A stretch of DNA of 64,000 nucleotides, taken from NCBI GenBank assembly GCA_044351695.1, contig JBILFF010000001.1, forward strand, positions 66,722 through 130,721. Direction: 5' to 3'. Under the pieces are notes generated by a model. That model made no database searches. It was not told where the DNA came from and worked only from the letters and a program-made list of their open reading frames with translations. Positions 2,435 to 59,794 of this stretch are shown here, one piece after another (positions within the stretch are counted from its first letter, which is position 1; every line of letters begins with the position of its first letter). The position numbers and the translations under genes are program-made. This stretch comes from Bdellovibrionota bacterium (lineage in GTDB: Bacteria; Bdellovibrionota; UBA2394).

Positions 2435-2501
2435 GCGCTGTGATTTCGAGCACTTAAATATCTTTCCCGAGTGGTGGCCAAATCTGATATAAAAGGGGCC
2501 T

Positions 2502-8551: not shown

Positions 8552-8755
8552 TTAGTCCAATTTATTGGATGATTTTGCTACCTGGAGCAAGACCCGGATG
8601 CCAGCAAATAGCCCCAAAAAAAGCCCCGTCAAGGTAAGGGCGGGTGCAATTCCCCACTCGCGATCTAAATAGGCCCCCCCAACGATTCCGATGACCGTGT
8701 AGAAACCAAACTGAGATGCGGCCCAACCCAGGGCCAAAAGCTTTGACTGGGCCAT
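8552..8755 (-). CDS. AtpZ/AtpR-like small 2-TM membrane protein
   Basis: 67 aa, two TM helices, located between hemL and atpI. Confidence 0.45.
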   Translation of the reverse strand: MAQSKLLALGWAASQFGFYTVIGIVGGAYLDREWGIAPALTLTGLFLGLFAGIRVLLQVAKSSNKLD

Positions 8756-10075: not shown

Positions 10076-10876
10076 TTATCGGGTCAGTTTTTGGCGTTGT
10101 CTTTTTTTGAGATTCTCGAGCAAAAAATGTGCCCTTAGATTTTTGGGGTCTTTTCGAATCATTTCTTCGAAAATCGCGGTTGCTTTTGCAACCTCTCCCG
10201 TCATTTCAAAGCAACTGGCTTTTTCAACCAGAATTCCAATTTCATCTCGCCCACAGTTTTTAGGAAACTGCATTTCTGCCAAATCAAAAACCTCTTTGCA
10301 CTTATCTTGAACCGAATAAACCTGAAGAAGATCTAACTGCAAGCTTCGCAACTCCTCGCAATTCTCTACCTTTCTCGCCATCTCGAGACTCTGACGAAAC
10401 CAATGGGAGGCTTGCTCATAATCGTTATTGGCCAAATAAACGCGGGCCAGCTCCTCACAAAACTCCAAAGTGAAGGGCCCAGCCTGAACCATGGGTGACA
10501 GGGCATCCAGAGCCCGCTCTGGATTCTCTAAATTAATTCTCCAAATCTTTGAGGCCATCAATCTCAAAGCTCGGATCTCTGCCTGATACTCAGAAACCTG
10601 CGAGTACTCTTCAAACAATCTTGAGAGGGCCGCCGTGGCTTCACGATACTCGTTAAGTTGCATCGCCGAAACCATCGCCAAGCCTTTGAGCGCTCGATAG
10701 CGAACGGCATCTCTTTCTTTTCGTTTTTCGAGAACTTGCAAATAGAGATACTTTGCAAGCTGGGCCTTTTGATCGAGAGCCTCACGATCCGCTTTCTCTA
10801 CCAGCCTCACATGATCCGGAGTGCAGGCTCCCAAGATCCAAAAAAAGCTGGCTACGACCAATGCTCTCGCAGTCAT
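10076..10876 (-). CDS. TPR-repeat lipoprotein
   Basis: Signal peptide with lipobox (LGAC), then multiple TPR-like helical repeats. Confidence 0.6.
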   Translation of the reverse strand: MTARALVVASFFWILGACTPDHVRLVEKADREALDQKAQLAKYLYLQVLEKRKERDAVRYRALKGLAMVSAMQLNEYREATAALSRLFEEYSQVSEYQAEIRALRLMASKIWRINLENPERALDALSPMVQAGPFTLEFCEELARVYLANNDYEQASHWFRQSLEMARKVENCEELRSLQLDLLQVYSVQDKCKEVFDLAEMQFPKNCGRDEIGILVEKASCFEMTGEVAKATAIFEEMIRKDPKNLRAHFLLENLKKRQRQKLTR

Positions 10877-10879
10877 TTT

Positions 10880-13321
10880 TTACTCCGCTGAGTCCTCATC
10901 TCCTGCCACACGAGCCACTGAAGAAACTTTTTCTCCGTCATCCAGGCTGATCAATCGCATGCCCTGAGTATTTCGTCCGATCACTGAAATCTCCTCTACT
11001 TTCATGCGAATCAGCTTTCCTCCGTCGGTGACGATCATGACTTCGACTTTGTCTTTCACTTGCAGAACAGCAACGACCGGACCATTTCGCTCTGAGGTTT
11101 TAATCGTGATCACCCCCTTACCGCCCCGACTTTGAACACGATATTCCTCAGCCTCTGTCCGCTTTCCATAGCCGAGTGAGCTCACACTTAAGAGCTTAGA
11201 GTCGCCTTCAATCACGTCCAAACTAACGACTCGATCATTCTTTTCGAGATCGATTCCTCTCACCCCGCGCGCTGATCTTCCCATGGGCCGGCAGTCTTCT
11301 TCAGAGAATCGGATACTCATTCCCTCCGCGGTACAAAGCAGCACATCGTCTTTACCGTTTGTAATTGTCGCACTCACCAATGAATCACCATCATCAAAAG
11401 AAATCGCGATGATTCCCGACGCTCGAACATTGGAGAATGCTTTCAGCTCGGTCTTTTTAACCGTGCCTTGCTCAGTGACCATGAAAACGAATCGACCTTC
11501 TTCTTCTAGGTTTTTAACAGGCAAAATAGAGCAGAGCTTCTCATCGGGCGCCATTTTGACGAGATTCACTAGGGGTCGTCCCTTCGCTGTTCTTCCCGCC
11601 TCTGGCACCTCATGTACCCTCAACCAAAGAAGGCGTCCCTTGTTCGTAAAGATCAACAGGTAAGAATGCGTCGATGCCACAAATAAGTGCTGAACAAAAT
11701 CATCTTCTTTGGTGGTCATGCCGATCTTGCCGCTGCCGCCTCGGCGCTGCGCACGGTAGGCAGAGGTTGGACTGCGCTTCACGTAACCCGCATGAGAAAT
11801 CGTAACCACGACCTCTTCTTCTTCAATCAGATCTTCGGCAACAAACTTTCCGATCTCAGGCAAGAGCTTGGTTCGTCGCTCATCACCAAATGAATCTCGA
11901 ATCGCTACAGACTCATCTCGAATCACTTTCATCAGTTTTTCTTTAGAGCTTAGCAACTCTTTGAGTCCCTGAATTTTGAGCGCCAGCTCTTTGAGTTCAG
12001 CACGAATCTTCTCGCGCTCAAGTCCCGTGAGTCTCTGGAGCCTCATCTCCAAAATGGCGTTAGCCTGCTCAATTGAAAAATCAAACCTTTTCACTAGCCC
12101 GGCTTTAGCTTCTTCAGCCGTCTGACTTTTTCGAATGAGCTCGATCACGGCATCAATTTTATCCAAGGCTTTTTCGTAGCCCTCAAGAATGTGTGCTCGT
12201 TGTTGGGCCTTTCGTAGCTCAAAAATGGATCGACGAATAACGACGTCTTTTCGATGGTCGATAAAATTCTTTAAAATCTCCGCCAGCGAAAAAACTTTAG
12301 GTCGCTTATTGGAAATAGCGAGATTAATAATTCCAAAATTCGATTGAAGTTGGGTGTGTTGATAAAGCTGATTGAGAACAATTTCAGCTTGAGCATCTTT
12401 TTTTAGCTCAACCACCACACGAATACCTTCGCGATTACTCTCGTCACGAAGATCGCTAATACCATCTACTTTTTTATCTCTAACCAAATTTGCGATTTCT
12501 TCGATCATCACCGACTTATTCACTTGGTAAGGGACTTCAGTAATGATGATGGCCTCGCGATTGCCGAGCTCTTCGACTTTCGCCACTCCACGCATGGTGA
12601 TCGAACCACGGCCCGTTTCGTACGCCTTGCGAATCCCAGAGGTACCACAAATGGTAGCTCCTGTGGGCAAGTCCGGACCCGGAATGATTTTAATGAGCTC
12701 GTCCAGACCCAAATCGGGCTGATCGATGAGAGCAATGACCGCGTTCATCACCTCTGTGAGATTGTGCGGCAACATATTGGTCGCCATTCCCACAGCGATT
12801 CCTGTGGTTCCGTTCACTAAGAGATTAGGAATGGGGCTCGGTAAAATAATTGGTTCTGTGGTCGCTCCATCAAAGTTTGGCTGAAAATCCACAGTTTCTT
12901 GATCGATCTCTGCTAAGAAAGTTTCGGCAATTTTTTGAAGTCGTGCTTCTGTGTAACGGTAAGCGGCTGCGCTATCGCCATCGATCGAACCAAAGTTTCC
13001 TTGGCCCTCAACCAAAACATATCTCATGTTCCAGTCTTGAGCCATTCGCACCATACTCTCGTAAACAGCAGAGTCTCCGTGGGGATGGTATTTTTTAAGC
13101 ACCTCTCCAACAACCCCAGCAGACTTGGCAAATCTTTTCGAGGAGAGCAGGCCCTCACGAAACATCGCGTAAAGTATTCGTCGGTGAACCGGTTTTAAGC
13201 CGTCTCGAATATCCGGGATCGCGCGTCCTATGATCACGCTCATCGCATAATCGAGATAAGAATTTCTCATCTCGTCTTCGATTGTGATGGGCGTTATTCC
13301 TGGCTTTAAATTTTCAGACAT
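10880..13321 (-). CDS. gyrA: DNA gyrase subunit A
   Basis: N-terminal …[28 protein letters not shown]… and C-terminal beta-pinwheel repeats. 813 aa. Confidence 0.95.
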
Positions 13322-13353
13322 AAATCACCGTCTCTCTTAAAATTCTATCGGAC

Positions 13354-15738
<2,385 letters not shown>

Positions 15739-15762
15739 CTAGAGCGAAGATTAGCCTGAGGC

Positions 15763-16908
15763 TTAGGAGAGAAGCAAGCCAGCATCCGCCGCTAATTCGG
15801 CATTTATACGGCTTTTTGGAGCATTTGAACTGAGTTCATACGACTGAAAATTAGCAAAGTTTTCCCTCAAATTTTCAATCTTAGTTTTCTCAACAGTGGT
15901 TAAAAACATCTGGCCTGGATAGTGGCTGAGGTAACTTAAAAGCGCCCGTACTCGATCCTCATCAAGCTCTGAAATAATATCATCTAAGAGAAGCAGAGGG
16001 GCTACTTTTTGTGCTTCTCGAGTTAGCTCCAACTGGGCCACTTTTAAGGCAATCACAAGGCTGCGGCACTGGCCCTGACTGGCAAAAGAGCGACTAGCAA
16101 GCCCGTTGATTTTGATCTCCAGATCATCGCGATGCGGCCCAATCAGAGAGTAGCCCACTGCGATTTCAGCTATCCGACGAGACTGAAGGCGCTTTAAAAA
16201 TTCTTCGGCACTGGGAATTTGATCGTTAAATTGGTTTAGGTAATGAAGGCTCAGCTCTTCAGCGACCCCAAAAAGACGATTGTAGATGCGGGGCAGAACC
16301 GGTGACAATTTACTCACCACGGATTCACGAATTTCATACACTCGTATCGCCTCTCGAATAAAAGCTTCATCCCATAAATCAAGTGACGACTGCGAGTGAC
16401 CCTCTTGAAGTTGCTTAAGGAGCCGATTTCGCTGCGTCAGTGTCTTTGCGAATTGGGCGAAGATTGTCGCTATTGAAGGATCTATGTTGATGGCTAAATC
16501 ATCTAAAAAATCGCGCCTTTCGTCCGGCCCGGCTTTAATTAGGCTTAAGTCATCGGGACTAAAAGACACGCTTGTACCTAAAAACTCATATCGTGATCGA
16601 TGATTAATCGCCTTTCCGTCGATCTGTACCCGCTTTCGCTTTTGATCAAAGCCAAACAAAATTTTTGTTGGATAGGGCTTTGTCAGTTCACATGAAATCG
16701 AGGCTTCTTGCTGACCGTAAAGAATCAAATCCTGATTCTTTGAGCTTCTAAAGCTTTTAAATTGAGTAATTAAATAAAGTGATTCGAGGATTGAAGTTTT
16801 ACCCTGTGCATTATGACCAACAATCACATTGAGTTGCGGGCCAAATCCCATGACTTCAAAGAAGCTAAACTTTCGAAACTGAATCAGCTTAAGGGAGTGA
16901 ACTTGAAT
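15763..16908 (-). CDS. recF: DNA replication/repair protein RecF. Proposed AUU start at 16908; the first canonical ATG is at 16851
   Basis: Walker A GHNAQGKTS and the conserved RecF body. The conserved N-terminal beta-strands (IQVHSLKLIQFRKFSFFEV) are encoded in frame upstream of the first ATG, directly after the dnaN stop. Confidence 0.8.
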   Translation of the reverse strand: MQVHSLKLIQFRKFSFFEVMGFGPQLNVIVGHNAQGKTSILESLYLITQFKSFRSSKNQDLILYGQQEASISCELTKPYPTKILFGFDQKRKRVQIDGKAINHRSRYEFLGTSVSFSPDDLSLIKAGPDERRDFLDDLAINIDPSIATIFAQFAKTLTQRNRLLKQLQEGHSQSSLDLWDEAFIREAIRVYEIRESVVSKLSPVLPRIYNRLFGVAEELSLHYLNQFNDQIPSAEEFLKRLQSRRIAEIAVGYSLIGPHRDDLEIKINGLASRSFASQGQCRSLVIALKVAQLELTREAQKVAPLLLLDDIISELDEDRVRALLSYLSHYPGQMFLTTVEKTKIENLRENFANFQSYELSSNAPKSRINAELAADAGLLLS

Positions 16909-16920
16909 ATGCCACCCACT

Positions 16921-18081
16921 TTAATTGGCTTCGCTACCCAATTGCATGGGCATCACAATATTGAGTGAGCCGTCGCTCTTCATTCCTTTAATAAGACTGG
17001 GAGAAAGAACATCGCTCAGTTCAATCACCACATTCTCTTGGTTGTTCATCGCATTCAAAATATCGATAAAGTATCCGGCATTAAAACCGATTTCGATATC
17101 ACTGCCTTGATAATCAATATCTAGATCTTCTTTCGCTTCTCCCAACTTAGGATTGCTTGAAGATAAATGCAGTCGTCCATTCTTCAGTTCAAATCTCACC
17201 GAGCGCGAATGCTCCATCGATAAGACTGAAATTCTTTTTAGAGAATTGAGCAGCTGCTCTCTCTTGATGATTACCCTCTTATCGTTGCTGTCTGGAATGA
17301 CGGGTGTGTAATCAGGAAACTCACCATCCAAGAGACGCATAAATAACTGAATCTGTTGGTTATCTGTCCAAAAAACTGCGTTTGAATTCATCAAACAACA
17401 ATAAAAAGAATCTTCTTCACTCAAAAGACGGCGAAGTTCTGAGAGCCCTTTACGAGGTAAAATGACTCCCTTTTCAAGATCTACTTCGCCTCCGGCCTCA
17501 ACCATTTGATCCATCATCGATAGACGATGCCCATCGGTAGCCACCATTCGAAGATAGTCTTTTCCTTTTTCTTTGAGTCGCTCTAAAAATACGCCGCTCA
17601 AATCATAACGACTTTGATCGTTTGAAACCGCAAAGATCGTATGATCAATCATTTGAGCAAATTGGGATGATGTCAGTTTGAAGGATTTCTCAGAATCGAT
17701 TTGTGGAAGCTGAGGAAACTCATCTGCATCTTGGCCAACTAATTTAAAGACACTCTTGCCCGAGATCAGCTCGATCCAAAAATTATCAAAAATATGAAAC
17801 TGACATTCGCTATCAAGAGGAAGCTCTCGAACTATTTCATAAAGACTTTTTGCAGGCACAGCCACTTTACCAGCTTTACTCACCTTCGCCGGAAAGCTAA
17901 GGCGCAGCCCGACTTCTAAATCTGTGGCACTAAAGATCACGCGATCTTCACCGGCTTCTATGAGTAAATGGCTCAGAATCGGAATCGTATTCTTTTTGTC
18001 CACGACAGACTGAACCCTTTGCAAAGCTTTCAACAAGCTTTCTCGTCCAATCTCAAAGCCGGCTTTTTGATGGCTCTTCAT
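16921..18081 (-). CDS. dnaN: DNA polymerase III beta sliding clamp
   Basis: Three-domain beta-clamp. Classical dnaA-dnaN-recF-gyrB order. Confidence 0.9.
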   Translation of the reverse strand: MKSHQKAGFEIGRESLLKALQRVQSVVDKKNTIPILSHLLIEAGEDRVIFSATDLEVGLRLSFPAKVSKAGKVAVPAKSLYEIVRELPLDSECQFHIFDNFWIELISGKSVFKLVGQDADEFPQLPQIDSEKSFKLTSSQFAQMIDHTIFAVSNDQSRYDLSGVFLERLKEKGKDYLRMVATDGHRLSMMDQMVEAGGEVDLEKGVILPRKGLSELRRLLSEEDSFYCCLMNSNAVFWTDNQQIQLFMRLLDGEFPDYTPVIPDSNDKRVIIKREQLLNSLKRISVLSMEHSRSVRFELKNGRLHLSSSNPKLGEAKEDLDIDYQGSDIEIGFNAGYFIDILNAMNNQENVVIELSDVLSPSLIKGMKSDGSLNIVMPMQLGSEAN

Positions 18082-18150
18082 ATTGATAGGCTCTAGGAAT
18101 ATGTTTCTGTAAACCCTTTGTAAATTCGTTTTTGATGGGCCTAAAAGATT

Positions 18151-18226
18151 TGGTGGACCGGATCGGGGTCGAACCGACGACCTCTACAATGCCATTGTAG
18201 CGCTCTACCAACTGAGCTACCGGCCC
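18151..18226 (-). tRNA. tRNA-Ala(GGC), CCA encoded
   Basis: Cloverleaf folded by hand: acceptor GGGCCGG/CCGGTCC with the G3:U70 Ala identity pair, anticodon loop AT-GGC-AT, T-loop TTCGACC, 3' CCA. Confidence 0.85.
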
Positions 18227-18834
18227 ACTGAAAGACTCTTCTTCTTACGTGAAAGATTTTCAGATCTCAAATGAGATTCGCTCTGACGCTGTGCGTAATT
18301 ATGCACAAGCTCGCCAGATTCTACTAAGAGGGGCCTTTTAGTTTTAATTTTTTCTAATAGTAGTCGTAGTAGGTACCCCACTTCCCTGTGGAAATGTACT
18401 AACATACTGTAATTATTGACTAATTTATTCACAGCGCCTGTGGAGATTTTATACACAATTTTGGATTTTCAAAAATTTATCCACAATTTCTAAAAATCTC
18501 ACACAGAATTCACAGGCTACACACAGGAGTTATGCACAGGTCTGACAATTTCATGCACAGCTGTGCATAAATACCTGTGCATAAGTCTCTTTTTCCTTCA
18601 TTTATGCACAGCTTTGTCTTCTTGCGGCGCGAGAGCCTGTGCATAACTCCTAATAAATTAAAAAAAATGAGTAATTTCAATAGGATATTATCCACAGGCC
18701 TGTGCATAAATCTGTGCATAAAGTGTGCATAACTGCCAAAATCTGTGCATAAATAATGACAAGCTTTGCTGAGACCAGCAAAAGTGACGACTATAAGTCA
18801 CCTTTAAAAATTGAAAGATTAAAAAAAATAGAAC
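18227..18834. promoter_or_regulatory. Chromosomal origin of replication (oriC) with DnaA-box cluster and AT-rich unwinding element
   Basis: At least 14 copies of TTAT(C/G/A)CACA or TGTGCATAA. Starts: 18299, 18425, 18449, 18477, 18530, 18562, 18576, 18602, 18638, 18688, 18701, 18713, 18724, 18744. AT-rich stretch about 18650-18690. Lies between dnaA and dnaN. Confidence 0.85.
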
Positions 18835-20358
18835 TTAAACGCCTAGATCTCGAATCTGAGTTTCAATTCGACCGAGAGATTCTTTCAGAAAAGGATCCGA
18901 ATCTTGCAATCGTCCAATTCGTCGAACGGCATGCAGAACCGTCGTGTGATTCTTCCCACCAAATAGGGTTCCAATATCGGGCAATGAGAGATTGGTGTAC
19001 TTGCGACACAAAAACATCGCTAACTGTCTGGGAGTAGCGAGTTCACGGGTCTTCTTTTCACCCTTCAGATCGCCGATGCTCAAGCGGTACTGACGAGCGA
19101 CCAGCTTCATGATCTCTTCAGGATCACGAAATACTGGAGAGCCGTCTTGCGACTCCGGTTTTAAAACATTTTTGGCTAATTCTACAGTGATCTCTGATCC
19201 TGAGAGCGAGGCGAAGGCACTCAATTTTAAAAGAGCTCCCTCAAGCTCTCGAATGTTGGACCGATACATTTTAGCTAGAAGAAAAGCCACATCCTCGGAC
19301 AAATTGATTCCATCGGATTCTGCTTTCTTAAAAATAATCGCTACACGAGTCTCCATTTCGGGAGGCTGAATATCCACCAACAATCCCATCTCAAAACGAC
19401 TACGCATACGGTCCTCAAGGCCTTCGATGTCTTTCGGGGGTCGGTCGGAGGAGAGAACAATCTGTTTTTGATGTTCGTAGAGGGCATTAAAGGTATGAAA
19501 AAACTCTTCTTGGGTTCGCTCTTTGCCCTTCACAAATTGAATATCGTCGATAATCAAAACGTCGCAGTTTTTACGATATCGATCTCTAAATTCTTCCATT
19601 TTCTCGAAGCGAATGCTTTCGATCATGTGATTGGTGAACTTTTCAAAGGTCGTATAATGCACGCGCAAAGAGGGGTATCGCTCTTGGATTTTAAGACCAA
19701 TCGCATTTAAGAGATGTGTCTTACCGAGACCAACATCTCCATAGATAAAAAGCGGATTGTAATGTTTACCCGGGGCTTCAGTGACCGTGTAAGCCGCTGC
19801 GTGAGCAAATTGATTACTGGCACCGACCACAAAAGTTTCGAAACCATACTTAGTGTTGAGCACTGTTTCAGAAGAAAGAGTGGAGGGTCCCGTCTTTGAT
19901 GGTCCCGTTGGAGGAACAGCGGACACATTTTTTTTGAGAGTCTGAGCCGAAACCGCCGTGCTTGGTCGAGCCACAGCTCTACCGGGGCTAGAAACCCGCT
20001 TTTGTTCAATCGAGAACTCCAAACGATATTTGGCATTTGAGGCCAAACTAAACTGCTCTTCAATTAAGCCTGAATAGTGGTCGTAGACCCAGTCTCTTGA
20101 AAAACCATTAGGAAATCCTAAAACTAAGGTGTTTTCTTTAGCGCCGAGAAGTCGAATGGTAAGGATAAACGATTGAAAATATTGAGGTCTTACAACTGAC
20201 TCGATCGCCTTGAGGGTCCGATCCCAAGCGACCGCCATGTCCTCTGGGACATTTGATTCCTCGCCTTGATTCTCCTCCTCAGTTCTCATATACCTCACAT
20301 CGATCTTTGGGATACCACCTCGGTGGATCTGCAGTAGGTAGTAACTTGTACTCAGCAT
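18835..20358 (-). CDS. dnaA: Chromosomal replication initiator DnaA. Likely start at an internal Met, about 20238 or 20289
   Basis: AAA+ Walker A GDVGLGKTHLL, sensor motifs, and the C-terminal DnaA-box-binding helix-turn-helix (…ATPRQLAMFLCRKYTNLSLPDIGTLFGGKNHTTVLHAVRRI…). Confidence 0.95.
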   Translation of the reverse strand: MLSTSYYLLQIHRGGIPKIDVRYMRTEEENQGEESNVPEDMAVAWDRTLKAIESVVRPQYFQSFILTIRLLGAKENTLVLGFPNGFSRDWVYDHYSGLIEEQFSLASNAKYRLEFSIEQKRVSSPGRAVARPSTAVSAQTLKKNVSAVPPTGPSKTGPSTLSSETVLNTKYGFETFVVGASNQFAHAAAYTVTEAPGKHYNPLFIYGDVGLGKTHLLNAIGLKIQERYPSLRVHYTTFEKFTNHMIESIRFEKMEEFRDRYRKNCDVLIIDDIQFVKGKERTQEEFFHTFNALYEHQKQIVLSSDRPPKDIEGLEDRMRSRFEMGLLVDIQPPEMETRVAIIFKKAESDGINLSEDVAFLLAKMYRSNIRELEGALLKLSAFASLSGSEITVELAKNVLKPESQDGSPVFRDPEEIMKLVARQYRLSIGDLKGEKKTRELATPRQLAMFLCRKYTNLSLPDIGTLFGGKNHTTVLHAVRRIGRLQDSDPFLKESLGRIETQIRDLGV

Positions 20359-20427
20359 TGATCGTCAAAGCTTTTTTCGAGGCAAGCCCTTGACTTGGTT
20401 TTCGATGTTATTGAGATTGGAGAGCTT

Positions 20428-20577
20428 ATGAAAAGAACCTTTCAACCCAGCAAGATTCGGCGAAAGCGATCGCACGGTTTTTTGACTAGAATGGCTACAC
20501 CAGGTGGTCGTCGTATTTTATCAAACCGTCGAGCAAAGGGCCGTGCACGCCTTATCCCCACAGTCTACGAAAAGTAA
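20428..20577 (+). CDS. rpmH: 50S ribosomal protein L34
   Basis: [42 protein letters not shown] matches L34 almost residue for residue. Confidence 0.9.
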
Positions 20578-34204: not shown

Positions 34205-34446
34205 TGAAAGTAAGAATTTCAACACCCGAGCAGGTTGTCTATGCGGGTGAAGCGGATTCTTTAGTGATCGAGGGAGATCAAGGACAGCTCGAGATTCTCC
34301 CTCAGCACGCTCGACTAGTCACTTTTGTGAGGGCAGGTTTGGCGCGGGTTCGCAAGGGCACTCAAGTTCAAGAGTTTAATTTGAACGAGGGAGTGATGAG
34401 GATTCAGAATGATGAAATCAGCATTCTCTCCTCAAGGCTTGCTTAA
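34204..34446 (+). CDS. atpC: ATP synthase F1 epsilon subunit, beta-sandwich domain only, 80 aa
   Basis: Matches the N-terminal domain of epsilon. There is no C-terminal two-helix domain. The stop abuts a convergent gene. Confidence 0.8.
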
Positions 34447-35036
34447 GATTTAGGGCTTTCTTTAGCAGAGAGCTTGATTTGAAGTTTGCCGCGCTCGTCT
34501 TTGCCGAGTTTTAGGGCCAGACCCTTTCCGGGGTGTTTTTCTTTAAAATGAAGGATTTGCTTTTCGAGCTTAAGTTCAAATGAAGCCCGGTCGGGTAGCT
34601 TTGCGGTTGGCCCCGAGCTTTCGGCCAACTTTTTATAGAGAGCATCGATAGCCTTTTTTTCTTTGGGCGAAATTTTGAGCTCGTTTGCTGGGGCGGATGA
34701 GGACTGGGTTTGCCGCGGAGCCGCTCTTTCTCGCTCGTGTACTTTCGCAATAAACTTATCGCGCCTATAAACTCCCTCCTCGATTTGCTGACAAATCTTT
34801 GCCCAGTGAACATGAAGTTGATTGTATCGAGCCTTCAAATTGACGAAGCGGAACTTTTGAGAAGTGGAGTTCATGTCCGCAGGATTGACTCCCAGAAGTT
34901 GGCGTCGCCAATCCGTATGCTGATCTCGAGGTTCAATGCGGGCTTGACCCGAGAAGTAGAGTTCATAAGCGTGCTTAAGATCTTCAAGACCAGATTCAAG
35001 CGATTGAAGCTTCGCGTCTGTCGCGACTGCACTCAT
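34443..35036 (-). CDS. Conserved hypothetical cytoplasmic protein, 197 aa
   Basis: Long ORF with a good coding look. No family recognised. Lys-rich C-terminus. Confidence 0.5.
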   Translation of the reverse strand: MSAVATDAKLQSLESGLEDLKHAYELYFSGQARIEPRDQHTDWRRQLLGVNPADMNSTSQKFRFVNLKARYNQLHVHWAKICQQIEEGVYRRDKFIAKVHERERAAPRQTQSSSAPANELKISPKEKKAIDALYKKLAESSGPTAKLPDRASFELKLEKQILHFKEKHPGKGLALKLGKDERGKLQIKLSAKESPKS

Positions 35037-35197
35037 GAGTGGGCCCTCACCTCTCTATTGTACTCCGAGTGACCTGGGGCGCGAGTGTCGCGAGGTGTGC
35101 GGGCCCTGCGGCCCTAGCCTCCCGGAATCCTTGTGGTTTCGCGCCCCCCCGGGATCGCATAGAAATTGCAAATCTGAAGGGCTGGGGAGGATTCTAG

Positions 35198-36712
35198 TTG
35201 GTGGGCCGAATATTTCGCGGGCTTCTTTTTTTTCTAGCGAGCCTTGTGATGGTGGAATTTGGAGAGGGCCTGAGGGCTTCGGCCAGACACGCACTCCTTT
35301 TTTCTCCTTCGGGTCAGCGGATTAACGAATCGCCAGCGCCAGCCAATTCGCGCGCTATTTTTCATCGATTGAGTACTGCGTGCGACTTGGATCCACAAAG
35401 AATCTGCATTAACTATCAGTTACAACTCCCCTCAAACATTCAAGAGGTTGAGGTTCTTACTCAGGCCGCAAGCAGCGTCCAGCTATGGACCACATCATCT
35501 GGAGCTCATTTGGGATCGCAGTATCAAGGCTTGTTTGCCGGCTCGGGCCTTCCTTTTGAACGAGACGGGGCTGGGTCTATTTTGCTGGACGAGTTTGGAA
35601 ATCAAAAACTTTCGGGTCCTATTCTGATCTCACTCGCACCGCCACCAGAACTGATTGAGGATTTTGCTGCAAACGAAGTGGCTCGAAACATCTACTACGT
35701 TCTGCCGGATCTCCAAAATTCTCAAGGGGAGCTGCTGTGGGCAGGAATTTACATTAATCCAAAGTTTAATCCCTTGATGGATTGCCAAGCGCCGGCCGCC
35801 AGCTGCTTTTCTATGACGGGCTTTGGTAGCTTTTCTTTGCGGTCTATCATCATTTATCAGTTGGGCTTAATCTTGGGAATCGCAGCTTCCGCTCTTCCAG
35901 ACTCTGTCATGTTTCCAGTGCAAAATCCGAGCTGGCCCAAGAACTACTCTAATCTCAGAGAGCATGAAAAAAATCTCGTGAGAAAGATTTATCAGGGCCC
36001 AGAACCAGAAGATCTCGGAAGCTTGAGGGGCCGGGTCACAAGCGGCGATGGGGGCGCGGGGCGCCCCGGGGCCAGCGTTTTTGCGTTGGCCGCAGATCGG
36101 ATGGATGCCGTGATTCGCACCCAAAGCTTAGATTTGTTTTCAGCATCTACGACGACCAGGCAAGGTGGCGAGTTCGTCTTTGAGGCGCTGATTCCTGGAG
36201 AGTATCTCATTTTTGTAGAATCTCCATTGGCACGGGGGCTTTCAAAAAATAAATTTGATGAATGGGTGAAGCGGTTTGGCGCGGATGAGTATTTTGCGCC
36301 CGAGCTCTATGATGGTCGAGATCGAGAGTCAAACAATGAGCCCGCAGATTTTTCTCCGCAGCTTTTTCGCGTGGCCGCGCGGGTCGTGGTGACAGCCGGA
36401 GAAGAGACCTCGGGTGTTCATGTCATTACCCAGCGAAGTCAATCTGGGTCGGCTCAATTAGTGGCCGGAGGCTCCACCAACGAAATTCTTTCGGATTACG
36501 AATTCAAAGACTTGAAGAATTTGATTCGGGATGAAATTCGATCTCAGCTCGATCGGCCCGAGAAGGCCAAGGGATCCTCAGGTTGTGCCGTCGGCACGCG
36601 GCCAGAAAAGTCTGGCTGGGGTTTTATTTTTGTTTTTTGGATTGCACTATGCCTGTGGTTTCGATTCCGATGGGGTCAGAAAGCAAAATTACACCCTGCT
36701 GGATGCCGGTGA
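35198..36712 (+). CDS. Secreted protein carrying a degenerate (catalytically dead) metzincin-like motif, a CarboxypepD_reg-like beta-sandwich, and a C-terminal TM plus basic tail
   Basis: Signal peptide. IIYQLGLILGI…SVMFP resembles HExxHxxGxxH plus Met-turn with all His/Glu replaced. …GRVTSGDG…GASVFALAADRMD…GEFVFEALIPGEYLIFVESPLARG is CarbopepD_reg-like. Ends …GSSGCAVGTRPEKSGWGFIFVFWIALCLWFRFRWGQK. Confidence 0.55.
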   Translation: MVGRIFRGLLFFLASLVMVEFGEGLRASARHALLFSPSGQRINESPAPANSRAIFHRLSTACDLDPQRICINYQLQLPSNIQEVEVLTQAASSVQLWTTSSGAHLGSQYQGLFAGSGLPFERDGAGSILLDEFGNQKLSGPILISLAPPPELIEDFAANEVARNIYYVLPDLQNSQGELLWAGIYINPKFNPLMDCQAPAASCFSMTGFGSFSLRSIIIYQLGLILGIAASALPDSVMFPVQNPSWPKNYSNLREHEKNLVRKIYQGPEPEDLGSLRGRVTSGDGGAGRPGASVFALAADRMDAVIRTQSLDLFSASTTTRQGGEFVFEALIPGEYLIFVESPLARGLSKNKFDEWVKRFGADEYFAPELYDGRDRESNNEPADFSPQLFRVAARVVVTAGEETSGVHVITQRSQSGSAQLVAGGSTNEILSDYEFKDLKNLIRDEIRSQLDRPEKAKGSSGCAVGTRPEKSGWGFIFVFWIALCLWFRFRWGQKAKLHPAGCR

Positions 36713-37907
36713 TTCTTTGGATGCTTTCGATTTTGCGGTGGCCGGAACTGTCTCGGCTTAACTGAACAAGAATGTCTAAAGCGCTGGCGATTTGAGATCG
36801 AATATAGGCAGGATCCACAGACCAGCCCGATCCCAACACGAGAGTTTCAACGCGGGTAATAGCATCTCGGGGGCTGTTCGCATGAATTGTGGTGATGCAG
36901 CCCGAATGCCCGGTGTTGATACACTGAAGAAAATCCTGCGCTTCATCGCCACGAATCTCGCTGACGATGAGGCGATTGGGGCGAAACCGAAGACTTTCTC
37001 GGATTCCTTCTTTCAGGCCTCCGCGGCCTGTTTCAACGAGGATGGCGTGAGGATGCGGCCAGGTCGTTTCGGCCTCTTCTTCAAGAATAACGAGCCGCTC
37101 TTCTGAGGGAACGGATTCGACAAGACTTCTCATGAGCACTGTTTTTCCGGTAGAGGTCGGGCCGCTGATCAGAATACTTTCTCGTCTTTCGATAACATCT
37201 TTTAGAAATTGGATCTGCTCTTCGCTTCCAAATTTTCTTGCTAAAAGTTCGTTCAAACTAAAAACATGCGGGCGTCCTTTGCGAATACAAATGTGCGGGC
37301 TTTCGACCAGAGGCGGTAGCGCAGCGTGAATGCGTAAGTGTTTTTTGAGGCGCCATGAGGCCCAGCCAGATGATTTTTGAGAGCCAGCCTGGATGAGCTG
37401 AGCGACAAAGTCATCGCTCGAAAAGCGCCAGGGCGAAGCATGGAGGCTTCCTTGATAGTCCACGTAAATGCGGCCTGAGCCGTTGATCATGACCTCATCA
37501 AATTGATCTTCTTCAACTAAATAATTCCACAGCGCTTCATCGCCTGCCGGCTGCGGTCGAAATGGAAATTTTGGTTTTGCCCGAGGAGCGGCCTCATAAG
37601 AAAAGCGAAGCCGGTGTTGGTCTAAAAGAATCTCATCACCCGATTGAAGAGGATGTTGATGAGAGATCAAGAGACCATTCTGCCGAACGAGAGAAGACTG
37701 AGAGCTGTTGATGAGCCACCATTGACCCTCTTCAAACCGTATCTCTACCGAAAAGTTTTTGGAGCTGAGGGTCAGATCAATATCATTAAGGGTGCTCGTG
37801 CCGATTTTGACGCTCTTTGAGCTGATTCGAACACTGCGGAGATTTTTTTTGTTTCCCGCGATCTTTTCTTCGATCTCTAAGTGGATGGGTGGAATATAGC
37901 TCGACAT
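36624..37907 (-). CDS. FHA-domain fused to a TadA/CpaF/VirB11-family secretion ATPase
   Basis: N-terminal FHA (…VKIGTS…NGLLISHQ…GDEILLDQHRLRF). ATPase Walker A GPTSTGKT, Walker B/Asp box RLIVSEIRGDEA, His box TGHSGCITTIHANS. Confidence 0.8.
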   Translation of the reverse strand: MSSYIPPIHLEIEEKIAGNKKNLRSVRISSKSVKIGTSTLNDIDLTLSSKNFSVEIRFEEGQWWLINSSQSSLVRQNGLLISHQHPLQSGDEILLDQHRLRFSYEAAPRAKPKFPFRPQPAGDEALWNYLVEEDQFDEVMINGSGRIYVDYQGSLHASPWRFSSDDFVAQLIQAGSQKSSGWASWRLKKHLRIHAALPPLVESPHICIRKGRPHVFSLNELLARKFGSEEQIQFLKDVIERRESILISGPTSTGKTVLMRSLVESVPSEERLVILEEEAETTWPHPHAILVETGRGGLKEGIRESLRFRPNRLIVSEIRGDEAQDFLQCINTGHSGCITTIHANSPRDAITRVETLVLGSGWSVDPAYIRSQIASALDILVQLSRDSSGHRKIESIQRITGIQQGVILLSDPIGIETTGIVQSKKQK

Positions 37908-37916
37908 TTCATAGAC

Positions 37917-38171
37917 CTATCGAAAGTCGGCCGTTTGCTCATCTCGTTGCTCTTCGGAGAGCGGCGTCCCGCCACTGCGCAGATACTCCTCGTAGTCAAA
38001 TTTGCCGCCGCTTTGGCAGTCGGGGGTAAAGGCAGCCTCATTGACCGGCCGATCGGTAACATCATTTGCATCGAGGACACACAGATTTTCGGTCCCACAG
38101 GCGCTCAAAACCCCTAAAAGCATTAGAAAACTGAAGAGCTTCCAATATTGCATGCCGGAACTTAGTAGCAA
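37917..38171 (-). CDS. Small Cys-containing lipoprotein (84 aa), probably co-transcribed with the FHA-ATPase
   Basis: Signal peptide with lipobox LSAC. Ends 10 nt upstream of the ATPase start. Four Cys. Confidence 0.5.
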   Translation of the reverse strand: MLLSSGMQYWKLFSFLMLLGVLSACGTENLCVLDANDVTDRPVNEAAFTPDCQSGGKFDYEEYLRSGGTPLSEEQRDEQTADFR

Positions 38172-38278
38172 TTCCGATGCCTGCTTTTGTTGCGTATCTT
38201 TGGGGGCTTAGCGGCATTTATGCAACTTCTGCGGGGATTCCTGACTTTAGGTCAAAGCCTCGATAGGATAGAAATACA

Positions 38279-39142
38279 GTGTTAGGTGCTTTGGTGAATT
38301 TTTCTTCGAGGTCCGGAGGAGCGTTTAGAGATCCAGTTTGGCTGGGGGCCTGGCTTATGGTTTCGCTTCTCATTCATGCCATGATCATGAGTTTTGTGGT
38401 TTTTTGGGCGCCTCAGATGGGCGGCACGAAGAGCCATGTGAGTTCGCCGATTCCGGTAGAGATTGTTCAGCGACCTAGCGAGCTCATCAAGACCCTACAG
38501 CCCGAAGCCACCGAGAAGCCCGATGATGCCAATTTTGTGAGTGATCGGGATTTGAAAGCAGATGAAGAAACAAGCCCAGAACTGGCCGCTCTCGATATGC
38601 CGAGCGCGGGCACGGCAGGAGCCGCTAAGGGGCGATCTGTACGTGAATCAAAGCCCAAGACCCGCGAGAGCTTTGGTTTGAGCTCCGCTGATAAAGAAGC
38701 GCTCGAAGATCCACTGCAGGGCGGGCAAGCGAGAGAGTTTCGTCAGTTTTCTCCGGGCTTTCAAAAGCGTCTCAAGCGAGGTGAGCAACTGAAGGTCAAC
38801 GCCTTTGGCCTTGATTACGGCCAGTATTATTTACGCATGAAAGAGAGGCTCGCGCAGCGCTGGAGGCCGCTTTCAGTGATCAGTCCGGCCATGTACAATT
38901 ACGATGAAGTTCAGGTTCTAGTGGCGATTGTTTTAAACTCAGCGGGTGAGCTGGTGGACCTCGAAATTCTTCGACCCTCTTTCTTTTCGCGCTACGATCA
39001 GGTGGCGATCGATGCCATAAAGGCAGCCGCTCCATTTCCGAATCCACCCAAGTCGATCATTCAGGACGACGGACGAGTCTATGTGACCTGGGGATTTGTT
39101 TTAAACATTGGCCGTTCAGGACTTCAGCGCGGGATCCAGTGA
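38279..39142 (+). CDS. TonB C-terminal-domain protein (TonB-family energy transducer-like)
   Basis: N-terminal TM anchor, charged linker, C-terminal TonB_C-like domain (…VLVAIVLNSAGELVDLEILRPS…AIDAIKAAAPFPNPP…). Confidence 0.6.
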   Translation: MLGALVNFSSRSGGAFRDPVWLGAWLMVSLLIHAMIMSFVVFWAPQMGGTKSHVSSPIPVEIVQRPSELIKTLQPEATEKPDDANFVSDRDLKADEETSPELAALDMPSAGTAGAAKGRSVRESKPKTRESFGLSSADKEALEDPLQGGQAREFRQFSPGFQKRLKRGEQLKVNAFGLDYGQYYLRMKERLAQRWRPLSVISPAMYNYDEVQVLVAIVLNSAGELVDLEILRPSFFSRYDQVAIDAIKAAAPFPNPPKSIIQDDGRVYVTWGFVLNIGRSGLQRGIQ

Positions 39143-47121: not shown

Positions 47122-48135
47122 CTAGCGCGACTCTGATCGAATATAATCGAGCTGTTCGGCCGCCCCGATTTTTGCGGCATCATCGATGAGCTGCTTAAGT
47201 GGCCCGTAGTGACTGTTTAGATCTCGCTCCATATCTAAAAGCTTGGTGACTACGATGCGTTTACGAATTTCTTCTTTGGCTTTTGGACGAATATCAACAA
47301 AACACATGAGGCTGTTAAGGCCCGACAGGAGGCCGATCACATCAGTAATGATTCCTCCCCAGCGCTGCAGCTCCTTGCCCTCATTGGTGCTGGCTCCAAA
47401 AGTTTTTGAGCCATTAATAATTTTTCCGAGTGCAGCCCAGCGGGTACCAACCACATAGGCGCTATTGGGTTGGCGCGGCAGGAGATTTCCCATCAAGGCC
47501 CATGCCATATCGTATTTAAAGCGGAGACCAATTTCTTCGGTAGGAACTTGGCTGAGGGCTTTATAAAAATTATCCATGGATGGATCGTTGCAGAGGTGCG
47601 CTGCAAAAAATCGCGAGAACTCACGAAGCCCAAAAGCCACATCGAGTCGGTTTAGTTTAGTAAAAAAGCCCGACTTCGATTCAATGATCTTGAAATCCAC
47701 AGACGCGGGAGTCCTCTCAAGGTAGTGTTTGACACCATAAAAATTCAAAGTTTGATACAGAGCCTCCATCGCCATTAAAAAAGAGGCGCCCTGCCGCGAG
47801 CTGCTGCTCGGAAAAAATCCCGGGCCCGGATCAAAAGAGGGAACAGCGGGTCGGTTAACAGGGTCTTCTCCAAACAAGTCATCAAGATCTGTGCCCGGAG
47901 GAGGATCGAGCGGAATTTTTTGTGCGTCTTCGCGTGCGGCTGAGCCCGCGAGGAGTCTCTCTCTTGCTGAGACGTAGTTTGCAAAGCTCGATAAAATCAA
48001 ATCAAGTTCGCCCCGCTCAAACGAATCTTCGCGAATGAGATCCTCTGCGTGGATATCTCGAACCTGTGCTTGAAAACCCACCAAACCAATGATGCTCGAA
48101 AGCAAGAGCGACCAAAAAGATCGACGTCCCTTCAT
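47122..48135 (-). CDS. Hypothetical secreted protein, 337 aa
   Basis: Signal peptide (MKGRRSFWSLLLSSIIGLVGFQA). No recognised domain. Confidence 0.45.
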   Translation of the reverse strand: MKGRRSFWSLLLSSIIGLVGFQAQVRDIHAEDLIREDSFERGELDLILSSFANYVSARERLLAGSAAREDAQKIPLDPPPGTDLDDLFGEDPVNRPAVPSFDPGPGFFPSSSSRQGASFLMAMEALYQTLNFYGVKHYLERTPASVDFKIIESKSGFFTKLNRLDVAFGLREFSRFFAAHLCNDPSMDNFYKALSQVPTEEIGLRFKYDMAWALMGNLLPRQPNSAYVVGTRWAALGKIINGSKTFGASTNEGKELQRWGGIITDVIGLLSGLNSLMCFVDIRPKAKEEIRKRIVVTKLLDMERDLNSHYGPLKQLIDDAAKIGAAEQLDYIRSESR

Positions 48136-48209
48136 AGAATATTCTCCCCCTCAGCCAATGTACGTGACGCGTTGCCGAGCGAGCAAGGTCTATGACGTGA
48201 TGCGACGCC

Positions 48210-48692
48210 CTAGCGCTTTGCGCTAAGCCTGCTTTTAAATTTCTTTTTTGGTTTGCTTGGATTCGTTGCTTTCATTTTGACTTGATAGTCAGTCGTTAAG
48301 GGGCTGATTCTTTGTAGCGGGGCGCGAGTGCTTTGACTTTGGAGTTCGTCGGTGAGCCGGCCCTCCATCATCTTGAGCGAAAGATCGCCCGCATGAGCCT
48401 CTTTTTTCACAGAACAACTAGAGAGCGCTTTTGCAGTGTAGATCACTTGTTGAGAGGGGGATTGAAGGGCGATAGAAATTTCGGTGTTGTCTCTGGTTAG
48501 ACAAAGCAGCTCAAGATTGATGGAGTGTGAGCTTTCAAAATAAAAGACACTCTTAATTTTGACTGGAATTTTTGCGCCTTGCAGGGGTGCGGTGAAAACA
48601 GAGGCGACGAAGCAAACAAAACCCACCACGAAGCTTGCCCAGAAGGCCTGACTCGAATTTTCGTTGCAGCTGAAAACTTGACTCATAGGCAA
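48210..48692 (-). CDS. Hypothetical membrane-anchored protein, 160 aa
   Basis: N-terminal TM. No recognised domain. Tandem with the downstream secreted hypothetical. Confidence 0.4.
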   Translation of the reverse strand: MPMSQVFSCNENSSQAFWASFVVGFVCFVASVFTAPLQGAKIPVKIKSVFYFESSHSINLELLCLTRDNTEISIALQSPSQQVIYTAKALSSCSVKKEAHAGDLSLKMMEGRLTDELQSQSTRAPLQRISPLTTDYQVKMKATNPSKPKKKFKSRLSAKR

Positions 48693-58524: not shown

Positions 58525-59034
58525 ATGAAAAGATTGGTTTCTACTTGGGGAGTATTGGGTCTGGCCTTAGCGGCTATGGCATTTACGTCGGGTTGCGCAT
58601 CTAAAAAGTCACGCGCAACAACTGGTGCGGGCAGTGAAAATAATGTGACTTATGGAACTTCTGCCGATGGCTCTTCAGACAATGGCGGCATTGGTTTGGG
58701 AACTTTGGCTCGCGTGTATTTTGATTACGACAGCTCAAATCTCTCGAGCGATTCTCGAGAGACGCTTGAGAAAAACGCTAAGGCGATCAAAGATAATCGT
58801 AAAATGCGAGTGCTGGTCGAGGGACACTGCGATGAGCGCGGATCGAATGAATACAACATCGCTTTGGGCGAAAGACGTTCTCGCGCTGTGATCGATTATT
58901 TGGTGAATTTGGGAGTGCAGAGAAGCCGCCTCGAGATGAAGAGCTGGGGAGAAGAACGACCTCTCAATGCTCAGTCCAGCGAATCTGCTTGGAAGATGAA
59001 TCGGCGAGCCGAATTCGTTATTCTTGCTAAGTAA
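58525..59034 (+). CDS. pal: Peptidoglycan-associated lipoprotein (OmpA-family)
   Basis: Lipobox TSGCAS. OmpA_C domain …VYFDYDSSNL…EGHCDERGSNEYNIALGERR…. Confidence 0.85.
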   Translation: MKRLVSTWGVLGLALAAMAFTSGCASKKSRATTGAGSENNVTYGTSADGSSDNGGIGLGTLARVYFDYDSSNLSSDSRETLEKNAKAIKDNRKMRVLVEGHCDERGSNEYNIALGERRSRAVIDYLVNLGVQRSRLEMKSWGEERPLNAQSSESAWKMNRRAEFVILAK

Positions 59035-59054
59035 TCATCATTTGGTTTTTCTTA

Positions 59055-59097
59055 AAGCCCGCATCAGCTAGATTAAGTTGATGCGGGCTTTTTATTT
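59055..59097 (+). terminator. Rho-independent terminator after pal
   Basis: aaagcccgcatcagc–tagattaa–gttgatgcgggcttttt: 11-bp GC-rich stem plus U-tract. Overlaps the annotated ybgF start. Confidence 0.7.
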
Positions 59098-59794
59098 TTA
59101 TCCCAGATTTTTTTTAGGGTTCTTTGTACTTTCTTTTGCCGTATCCGGCTGCGCTCAGCGAATCGATGAGTTTGAGATTCGAATGAAAGACATGGATGAG
59201 CGAATGAAGCTCATGGAGGGAAGATCGGGCGGTCCAGTGGGGAGCGATCGAGAGTTGTTAGAGGGTCGAAAGATTGCCGACGTCAGAACTCAACTCTCGG
59301 CCATGCGTAACGAGATCACCGTGATGAGTGGTAAGCTTGAGGCTCTCGAGCTAGAGCTGAAGAGCTTGCGAGAGCAAACCGATAACTCGCTCCGCGATCT
59401 CGATCGAAAAATCGGTCAGCAATCGTCTTCAGGCGGCGCCCCAAACGCGCCAGCGCCAGTGGCCGGGGGAGAGGCAAAGTATCGAGAAGCGTTGATGGCG
59501 CATCAGGCGGGAGATTTTGTGAAGTCTCGACGACTATTCGAGGAGTTTGTGAAGGAAAGTCCACGCTCCGCATTTGCTGACAACGCCGTTTATTGGATGG
59601 GGGAGTCCTATATGCTGGAGCGAGATCATCGCAAAGCGCTGATCCGTTTTGATGATCTGATTGCAAAGTTTCCGAATTCCGATAAAAGGTGCGATTCCCG
59701 CGATCGGCAGATCGAGGCGCTCAAAGCCCTCGGGATGGAGGATCAAGCAAAGACCTTCGCCGATCTCCGGAACTCGGAATGCAAGAAGCGCTAA
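59078..59794 (+). CDS. ybgF: Tol-Pal system protein YbgF/CpoB (coiled-coil plus TPR)
   Basis: Signal peptide, N-terminal coiled-coil, C-terminal TPR repeats (…AFADNAVYWMGESY…). Immediately downstream of pal. Confidence 0.75.
   Translation: MMRAFYFYPRFFLGFFVLSFAVSGCAQRIDEFEIRMKDMDERMKLMEGRSGGPVGSDRELLEGRKIADVRTQLSAMRNEITVMSGKLEALELELKSLREQTDNSLRDLDRKIGQQSSSGGAPNAPAPVAGGEAKYREALMAHQAGDFVKSRRLFEEFVKESPRSAFADNAVYWMGESYMLERDHRKALIRFDDLIAKFPNSDKRCDSRDRQIEALKALGMEDQAKTFADLRNSECKKR

Follow-up and report, generated by a model that had tools for sequence, protein, structure and literature searches.

CpaF is the ATPase that serves the Tad (Flp) pilus. ATPases of type IV filaments are not known to act other than through cognate membrane platforms, and we know of no way in which a CpaF-type motor could act without a platform, a secretin, a pilin and a prepilin peptidase. 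In the contact-killing apparatus of Myxococcus xanthus, KilF is a fusion of a forkhead-associated (FHA) domain with CpaF, and the Kil genes lie in two separate clusters (PMC8460266). The occurrence of such FHA-ATPase fusions in myxobacterial killing machines had been stated correctly in a first-pass annotation of 64,000 nucleotides (nt) of the Bdellovibrionota bacterium contig JBILFF010000001.1 (GCA_044351695.1, UBA2394), hereafter the window, within which all positions are counted. Here we analyze a block of five genes of this window, encoding a CpaF/TadA-family ATPase with an FHA-fold N-terminal domain (N-domain), a very small lipoprotein, an exported pseudo-matrixin with the fold of the matrix metalloproteinases (MMPs), hereafter pseudo-MMP, a TonB/TolA-type protein and a cytoplasmic protein of 197 amino acids (aa).

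Caulobacter CpaF (PDB 8rkd, 9e24) resembles the ATPase of the block in its homologous N2 and ATPase domains, in all nucleotide-binding motifs and in size, but the match begins at residue 154 of the 501-aa CpaF chain, the FHA fold of our ATPase lying N-terminal to the aligned part, and no gene for TadB/C, CpaE, a secretin, Flp or a prepilin peptidase is found nearby. KilF, by its description, shares the order of an N-terminal FHA domain and a CpaF-type ATPase, the Myxococcota/Bdellovibrionota group and the presence of small lipoproteins in the same clusters (PMC8460266), whereas it is encoded among prepilin peptidase, secretin and platform genes, none of which occur at the block, and the FHA pocket is degenerate here. 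FHA folds devoid of the phosphothreonine residues and attached to, or associated with, a secretion ATPase are found in YscD/PrgH of type III and EssC of type VII secretion systems, an analogy that suggests a docking role for the domain, although the fusion described here is with a CpaF-type ATPase and not with an FtsK-type ATPase or a ring protein.

The pseudo-MMP shares with the matrixins (M10A; karilysin, MMP-7) the fold, both halves of the domain by profile, and the Met-turn, but the three zinc-binding His residues are absent from every member, as is the catalytic Glu from the subclade of the window. Its C-terminus is similar to the MYXO-CTERM and JDVT-CTERM (myxosortase) tags, ending in a Gly-rich motif that contains an invariant Cys, then a transmembrane (TM) helix and, at the very end, a basic tail. 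According to PMC11980579 and the Haft preprint, tripartite tags with an invariant Cys mark Myxococcota proteins sorted to the cell surface. The pseudo-MMP differs in that there is no sortase-like gene near its own, no second protein with the same tag in a scan of the window and all loci, and no curated model that its tail passes. The TonB/TolA-type protein has the single N-terminal TM helix with SxxxH, the charged linker and the C-terminal domain of such transducers, yet no ExbB/ExbD or TolQ/TolR gene occurs in the 64 kb and no TonB-dependent receptor gene lies near it, while its gene always adjoins the lipoprotein-ATPase operon. As a whole, the block matches no described system: a CpaF-type ATPase stands here in a conserved, non-Tad, sigma-54 context together with a pseudo-MMP. 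The reading that we favor, tentatively and at less than even confidence, is that of a lineage-specific, sigma-54-induced envelope module, in which the ATPase would aid a step of assembly or export that the lipoprotein and the displayed pseudo-MMP take part in.

The ATPase, its FHA-fold domain and the lipoprotein

All five open reading frames (ORFs) of the first-pass annotation (34443-39142) were found in place, and the family assignment of the ATPase held. It matches Pfam T2SSE (PF00437) at E=9e-34 (117 bits, cut-off 24.9), its best solved relative is CpaF (PDB 8rkd, E=4e-42 over query aa 130-420), and PF00498 is matched by 18 of 24 isolated N-domains (best 3e-7). Among the NCBIfam models, the TadA-type one ranks above TrbB and VirB11, with every score under the equivalog cut-off (TIGR03819, 193.9 against 373; TrbB, 155 against 304.6; VirB11, 149 against 250). 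In a full-length alignment the Walker A motif, Asp box, Walker B motif and His box are intact in all 34 clade members, so the enzyme should be catalytically intact and active. Members of the clade whose alignment covers the N-terminal as well as the ATPase part score 367-949 bits, and three shorter entries reach 305-315 bits; CpaFs outside the clade score at most 201 bits, with the ATPase part alone aligned. Judged by these scores, the clade is sharply delimited and forms a distinct long branch among CpaFs. A role of the ATPase as an enhancer-binding protein was considered and rejected, its match to Sigma54_activat (E=0.06) reflecting P-loop similarity only.

The profile of the N-domain family matches the FHA domain of EmbR at 1.5e-5, and the FHA domain of KIF13B is also matched. 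In the EmbR alignment, G-[ST] stands at the GR position, the Arg being replaced by Ser or Thr across the family, and the Ser and His of SxxH are missing in all 34 members, which leaves Gly and Asn as the only pocket residues kept. Thirteen of the 24 N-domains match Yop-YscD_cpl (PF16697) and seven match FtsK_SpoIIIE_N (PF12538), both of them FHA-like families that are not known to bind phosphopeptides. The loss of the phosphothreonine pocket together with the resemblance to domains of the YscD and EssC type leads us to infer that the N-domain is a docking module and not a phosphothreonine reader. One of the two readings offered in the first-pass annotation was an FHA-gated secretion or signaling module, in which the FHA domain would read phosphothreonine written by a Ser/Thr kinase and so control the ATPase. 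Such gating would agree with the fold itself and with the over-representation of FHA proteins in the Kil system, for which a signaling role has been proposed (PMC8460266); given the residues lost family-wide, the matches to families of the non-phosphopeptide kind and the lack of any kinase or phosphatase gene in the 64-kb window, we regard it as highly improbable.

The lipoprotein is present as first annotated, but its start was misplaced: instead of TTG 38171 (84 aa), ATG 38153 (78 aa) is the most likely start, the protein beginning MQYWKLFSFLMLLGVLSAC and continuing with G. The Cys of the lipobox LSAC is residue 19 when counted from this ATG and residue 25 in the ORF as first annotated, and the mature protein of ~59 aa is acidic, with the N-terminus C-G-x(3-6)-C. 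A small lipoprotein with this N-terminus precedes the ATPase in every locus, while the remaining sequence diverges fast and has no Pfam or NCBIfam match. With its lipobox, the small upstream gene encodes a lipoprotein and not an Flp prepilin. The stop codon lies 9 nt ahead of the ATPase ATG, and this spacer, along with a conserved shared promoter, bears out the proposal that the two genes form one transcription unit.

As had been claimed, no tad, flp or pilus genes accompany the ATPase. Among ORFs of at least 150 aa in the 64 kb there is no T2SSF (TadB/TadC platform), secretin, prepilin peptidase or Flp, and the same filament genes are missing within ~10 kb in those related loci whose called genes carry Pfam listings. 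The lipoprotein-ATPase operon could, however, work in trans in a filament machine, Tad/Kil-like or otherwise of type IV, whose genes for platform, secretin and pilins lie elsewhere, the pseudo-MMP, TonB-like and 197-aa genes being mere neighbors. We consider this a possible explanation, nearly as likely as the favored envelope module. In its favor, the ATPase is a complete motor of the CpaF family with none of its motifs lost, and the two clusters of the Kil genes include small outer-membrane lipoproteins alongside the FHA-CpaF KilF (PMC8460266). The gap in bit score between even the weakest two-part member of the clade and the other CpaFs argues against it, as does the N-domain, whose hidden Markov model matches no outgroup CpaF, including the sole FHA-CpaF among the relatives listed. 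Moreover, the ATPase was never found beside a filament gene in ~20 loci. Literature on orphan FHA-CpaF proteins was searched, and nothing relevant was found.

The pseudo-MMP and the promoters of the convergent units

A profile built from 12 members of the pseudo-MMP family matches karilysin and MMP catalytic domains at ~2e-7, in the sheet region near the N-terminus as well as in the active-site helix and Met-turn. The AlphaFold2 (AF2) model has a predicted local distance difference test (pLDDT) score of 80-90 across most of the MMP domain and superposes on karilysin, MMP-7 and MMP-11 with target-normalized TM-scores of 0.56-0.66 (Foldseek); the homologues for this structural work were retrieved by exact look-up. 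The first-pass annotation had seen a metzincin motif with every catalytic residue replaced, which is true of the window and its subclade, where the motif reads YQLGLILGIAA and the catalytic Glu is replaced in addition to the three His; in most relatives the motif is xExGRxxGLxxS, in which the three zinc-binding His are gone and the catalytic Glu is kept. Since all three zinc ligands are replaced in every member, the pseudo-MMP is classed as a pseudo-enzyme, and by this reading of the motif zinc binding is lost throughout the family. The Pfam M10 score of the window protein is 13 bits, under the cut-off of 24. The homologue MBN8553866.1 (L007, P0276) is nevertheless called a "matrixin family metalloprotease" by PGAP (NCBI), despite the absent zinc ligands, a name that is misleading. 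Word-indexed homologue searches, started from a single sequence or a 12-sequence profile, returned only the 504-aa protein itself and beta-sandwich repeats, and a literature search on bacterial matrixin pseudoproteases yielded nothing relevant.

The MMP domain is followed by a CarboxypepD_reg/CnaB-like beta-sandwich with a conserved FYDGxxRESN insert. The C-terminal end, which had been described as a Cys-TM-basic tail after a beta-sandwich, proved to be a constant feature: a Gly-rich motif with invariant G462-C463, a hydrophobic TM stretch and an Arg/Lys-rich end occur in 12 of 12 members. Curated sorting-signal models (NCBIfam CTERM) were run on 10 C-terminal tails and none passed, the best match being to JDVT-CTERM with 14.8 bits against a cut-off of 27, in one of the ten.

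The ATPase and pseudo-MMP genes are convergent, as first annotated, and in addition their 3' ends overlap, by 89 nt in the window and, wherever both genes are present, by 29-113 nt. For both strands of the 89-nt overlap a short hairpin rich in GC is predicted at 36691-36711, which could be a bidirectional terminator or a product of chance.

A single canonical GGCAY-N5-TTGCT/W element precedes the lipoprotein gene in every covering locus (22 loci of the ATPase clade), locus L009 having TTGCG instead, whereas 0.58 matches to GGCAY-N5-TTGCW are expected by chance per 64 kb of the window. In the window the element is GGCATCGGAATTGCT, with GG at -24, GC at -12 and the fixed spacing TGGCAC-N5-TTGCW, and it is predicted to be a sigma-54 promoter driving the lipoprotein-ATPase operon. 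The lipoprotein ATG lies 12-14 nt past the element in 15 of the 15 loci measured (13 nt in the window); given where sigma-54 promoters are known to initiate, the predicted start of transcription would coincide with the ATG, and the lipoprotein mRNA would have no leader or almost none. A leaderless transcript from a sigma-54 promoter is an unusual combination.

At least 16 loci have a second element, nGCAY-N5-TTGCA, ahead of the pseudo-MMP start (35157-35170 in the window); it begins 26-46 nt upstream where measured, and the intergenic DNA around it is otherwise unconserved. Its -12 half is perfect and its spacing constant, and the -24 GG is present in about one third of the loci. Of all matches to the relaxed pattern over 678 kb of strand, about two thirds lie before a lipoprotein or pseudo-MMP gene. 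The TonB-like gene is preceded by a separate, conserved promoter of sigma-70-like type (CTGACA, 17 nt, TAGGAT). From these shared -24/-12 elements the lipoprotein-ATPase and pseudo-MMP units look co-regulated, while the TonB-like gene, given its promoter, looks independent. The promoter type common to the two units and the 3' overlap of the ATPase and pseudo-MMP genes in every locus having both are further points against an operon that serves a filament machine elsewhere, although sigma-54 control as such is common for pilus genes and would suit that explanation as well.

Around 40-70 nt upstream of the -24 element lies a conserved TGTCAG-N(9-12)-TTTGCA block (38205-38240 in the window), which could be an activator (enhancer) site, and whose TGTCAG is at the same time the -35 box of the promoter that drives the TonB-like gene in the opposite direction. 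The only other exact match to GGCAY-N5-TTGCW in the window is GGCACATTTTTTGCT (10119-10133, minus strand), 54 nt upstream of a class-III aminotransferase gene (8755-10065) and within the 3' end of a tetratricopeptide repeat (TPR) gene. The 161-nt leader between the 197-aa and pseudo-MMP genes had been noted as GC-rich and hairpin-rich; the former is correct (63% GC), but a structured RNA leader was rejected, as the folding is no better than that of shuffled sequence (z = -0.58) and there is no Rfam match. A generic scan for sigma-70 promoters and terminators gave matches at or below chance.

Conservation, natural break-points and function of the block

A scan of 185,579 species genomes gave 11 loci of the clade, all from uncultured metagenome-assembled genomes (MAGs) labeled Bdellovibrionota, Bacteriovoracaceae, "Deltaproteobacteria" or "Bradymonadales", and further loci came from assemblies and from metagenomes scanned with the pseudo-MMP as anchor, for a total of ~20 distinct sequence types. 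The order TonB-like (-), lipoprotein (+), ATPase (+), pseudo-MMP (-), 197-aa (+) is kept in ~20 distinct relatives as far as the contigs reach, except that the ATPase is absent in locus L026 and the 197-aa gene displaced in locus L018. Within the loci scanned, no other arrangement was found for the ATPase clade, the pseudo-MMP family or this lipoprotein. Identity to the window is 82-94% for AtpD, 43-67% for the ATPase, 36-59% for the TonB-like protein, 29-60% for the 197-aa protein and 26-44% for the pseudo-MMP.

Most loci are collinear over the entire ~20 kb between parAB and gcvT, and natural break-points exist. In L018 both housekeeping flanks are replaced and the four core genes are still together, a two-gene insertion displacing the 197-aa gene. 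In locus L007 three genes are inserted between the TonB-like gene and gcvPB, and in locus L015 a 5-kb insertion (13499-18424) separates the 197-aa gene from atpC. The TonB-like gene stays beside the operon when parted from gcvPB (L007, L018). Because the block was kept together at three independent flank break-points, it is more than inherited synteny, and the earlier view that these genes form a conserved unit gains support from their common order across relatives through these rearrangements. The L018 insertion (12973-19083, between the pseudo-MMP and 197-aa genes) encodes proteins of 460 and 1447 aa, the latter with an intact HExxH (HELFH); Pfam has no match for these inserted genes. The L015 insert contains, by eye, sugar-nucleotide/heptose-pathway genes (an epimerase and HldE-like and GmhA-like genes).

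In L026 (1-1400) the ATPase is gone: the pseudo-MMP converges on the lipoprotein gene with a 41-nt overlap, the TonB-like gene is kept, and ~1.23 kb spanning the ATPase ORF is missing in comparison with a 75%-identical relative. L026 is one short metagenome contig, and a contig from a sister sample (L025, 2565-3578) is 99.9% identical to it and ends exactly at the deletion junction, a pair that hints at polymorphism within the population. The proposed co-occurrence of lipoprotein and ATPase thus stands in all other loci and fails in L026, where the lipoprotein persists without the ATPase. A loss of this kind would also fit an operon acting in trans, since loss of a motor could abolish a dispensable appendage and leave the neighbors untouched.

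The same natural deletion, which shows that the ATPase can be lost alone, agrees with a further explanation, in which the block has no common function and five unrelated envelope genes, lineage-specific or general, are co-carried in a slowly rearranging near-origin region. The collinearity of the parAB-gcvT region, the separate sigma-70-like promoter of the TonB-like gene and the wide spread of the 197-aa family all speak for it. We consider it unlikely, as the block is intact at all three flank break-points, the convergent units have a conserved 3' overlap and paired -24/-12 elements, and the ATPase clade, pseudo-MMP and lipoprotein were not found outside this arrangement.

In the envelope module that we favor, an enhancer-binding protein encoded elsewhere would turn on both sigma-54-type units together. 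The pseudo-MMP would leave the cytoplasm via Sec, be processed at its Cys tag and then, displayed on the envelope, act in binding but not in catalysis. The hexameric ATPase would dock through its FHA-like domain onto an inner-membrane partner, possibly an unlinked platform or the cytoplasmic tails of the neighbors, and would then use ATP to power the assembly or export step for the lipoprotein and the pseudo-MMP. The TonB-like protein may link the proton-motive force to the outer membrane. As one natural haplotype has lost the ATPase, its role would be auxiliary and not indispensable.

Several observations weigh against this model. Neither the window nor any flank encodes a secretin, a pilin, a prepilin peptidase or a TadB/C platform. 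As most loci share the housekeeping flanks, inheritance alone accounts for much of the synteny. The -24 GG is absent from most pseudo-MMP promoters, the promoter of the TonB-like gene differs in type from those of the convergent units, and the 197-aa family is far wider spread than the ATPase clade. The C-terminal tag passes no curated sorting-signal model. Because L026 keeps the lipoprotein, TonB-like protein and pseudo-MMP without the ATPase, these neighbors are not strictly dependent on it; and the lineage is uncultured.

A bolder version, which we hold to be quite doubtful, is that a CpaF-type hexamer has been freed from Tad altogether and serves as the engine of a minimal sigma-54 envelope machine without pilin, secretin or TadB/C. 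The hexamer would dock through its phosphate-blind FHA domain, together with a micro-lipoprotein made from a leaderless mRNA, and would help to deploy or operate a surface-anchored, dead MMP-like binding protein. If true, type IV filament machinery would have given rise to a system of a new kind.

Neighboring genes, genomic context and significance

The features of the block are collected in Table 1.

Table 1. Features of the five-gene block, with positions counted within the window
Feature	Position	Strand	Remarks
MXAN_5187-type 197-aa cytoplasmic protein	34443..35036	-	helical bundle, disordered linker, small C-terminal domain
-24/-12 promoter-like element TCGCATAGAAATTGCA	35155..35170	+	28 nt upstream of pseudo-MMP start; GGAGG ribosome-binding site after it
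Exported pseudo-matrixin (pseudo-MMP), 504 aa	35198..36712	+	signal peptide, MMP fold, beta-sandwich, Cys-TM-basic tag
MMP-fold domain of pseudo-MMP	~aa 30-265	+	profile and AF2 model
Degenerate zinc motif YQLGLILGIAA	aa 220-230, nt 35855-35887	+	in place of HExxHxxGxxH
Met-turn SVMFP	nt 35903-35917	+	S[VL]M[YF]P conserved in family
C-terminal tag of pseudo-MMP: Cys463, TM helix, basic tail	nt 36575-36709	+	
CpaF/TadA-family ATPase, 427 aa	36624..37907	-	FHA-fold N-domain and T2SSE motor
ATPase His box	36873-36917	-	
ATPase Walker B	36948-36971	-	
ATPase Asp box	37068-37088	-	
ATPase Walker A GPTSTGKT	37140-37163	-	
FHA-fold N-domain of ATPase	aa 1-105, nt 37593-37907	-	PF00498 and profile matches
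Prolipoprotein, 78 aa	37917..38153	-	lipobox LSAC
Canonical sigma-54 (-24/-12) promoter GGCATCGGAATTGCT, predicted	38167..38181	-	predicted to drive lipoprotein-ATPase operon
TonB/TolA-type protein, 287 aa	38279..39142	+	TM helix with SxxxH, charged linker, TonB_2 C-terminal domain

The claim of a TonB C-terminal domain in the neighbor of the lipoprotein is borne out by matches above cut-off to PF13103 (TonB_2; 1.8e-9, 38 bits against 22) and TIGR01352 (tonB_Cterm; 2.3e-9, 37.5 bits against 27.1); the match to tolA_full (5e-5) is under the cut-off. The SxxxH motif of the N-terminal TM helix, which is a signature of coupling to ExbBD or TolQR, occurs in 12 of 12 members (in L002 by eye) and reads SLLIH in the window (nt 38363-38377).

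The 197-aa protein, by contrast, is not specific to the module that had been proposed. Its family has 1454 representatives at E<1e-3, many of them with an MXAN_5187 C-terminal domain, which is carried by distant members. The homology of its N-terminal domain to that of the MXAN_5187 type (NCBIfam NF041621/NF041620) is certain (hhalign 99.8%), and NF041621 is passed by 33 of 59 short members of the family, though the window copy does not match it at E<0.1. The AF2 model (pLDDT 92) has a helical bundle and a small alpha/beta domain (helix-helix-strand-strand), for which no informative structural neighbors were found, and nothing relevant was found in the literature on MXAN_5187.

The genes of the window follow the order gyrA, gyrB, recF, dnaN, dnaA, origin, rnpA, yidC, mnmE, mnmG, parA, parB, bactofilin and the atp operon; to the right of the latter lie the five-gene block and then gcvPB, PA, H and T and more housekeeping genes. 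The replication origin is placed between dnaA (18835-20358, minus strand) and rnpA (20504, plus strand), at 18835-20504, and the minimum of the cumulative GC skew falls at ~19-20 kb of the window; on these two grounds the block lies ~15 kb from oriC. The first-pass annotation had called the block accessory, a description that does not fit its position among dnaA, parAB, atp and gcv, its normal composition and its vertical inheritance in the whole lineage. No compositional anomaly was found over the block, and a mobile island was rejected, there being no integrase, no flanking tRNA and no compositional shift, with the block present in all relatives. The block is inherited vertically and is specific to one uncultured Bdellovibrionota-like lineage, and it is no mobile or accessory island.

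Some other features of the window were recorded. The atp operon is split, since the ATP synthase a-subunit gene (7434-8165, minus strand) lies across the origin, ~21 kb from the remaining atp genes (~28.9-34.4 kb). Three SurA/PpiC-type peptidyl-prolyl isomerase paralogues stand in tandem at 600-3446. comEC is followed, at 58525-59794, by two genes, one for a Pal-like protein of the OmpA family and one for a TPR protein resembling CpoB/YbgF, without tolQRAB, and a TolA-like partner of this pair may be encoded elsewhere. Two adjacent ORFs (337 and 160 aa; 47122-48692, minus strand) have no Pfam match, so the block is not the sole unannotated stretch of the window.

The practical impact of these observations is limited, because the organisms are uncultured. 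The block nevertheless yields a family of bacterial matrixin pseudo-enzymes with a new Cys-type C-terminal tag, and a warning that automatic annotation labels such a pseudo-enzyme a metalloprotease; it also yields, for an uncultured lineage, a clear set of predicted sigma-54 promoters with leaderless geometry. For the type IV filament ATPases, it reveals a conserved CpaF clade, catalytically intact by its motifs, that is never encoded with a platform and whose conserved partners are a dead surface protein of MMP-like fold and a micro-lipoprotein. In this predator-related phylum, either machines of the Tad/Kil type would be split across the chromosome, or such motors would have been recruited to another job.

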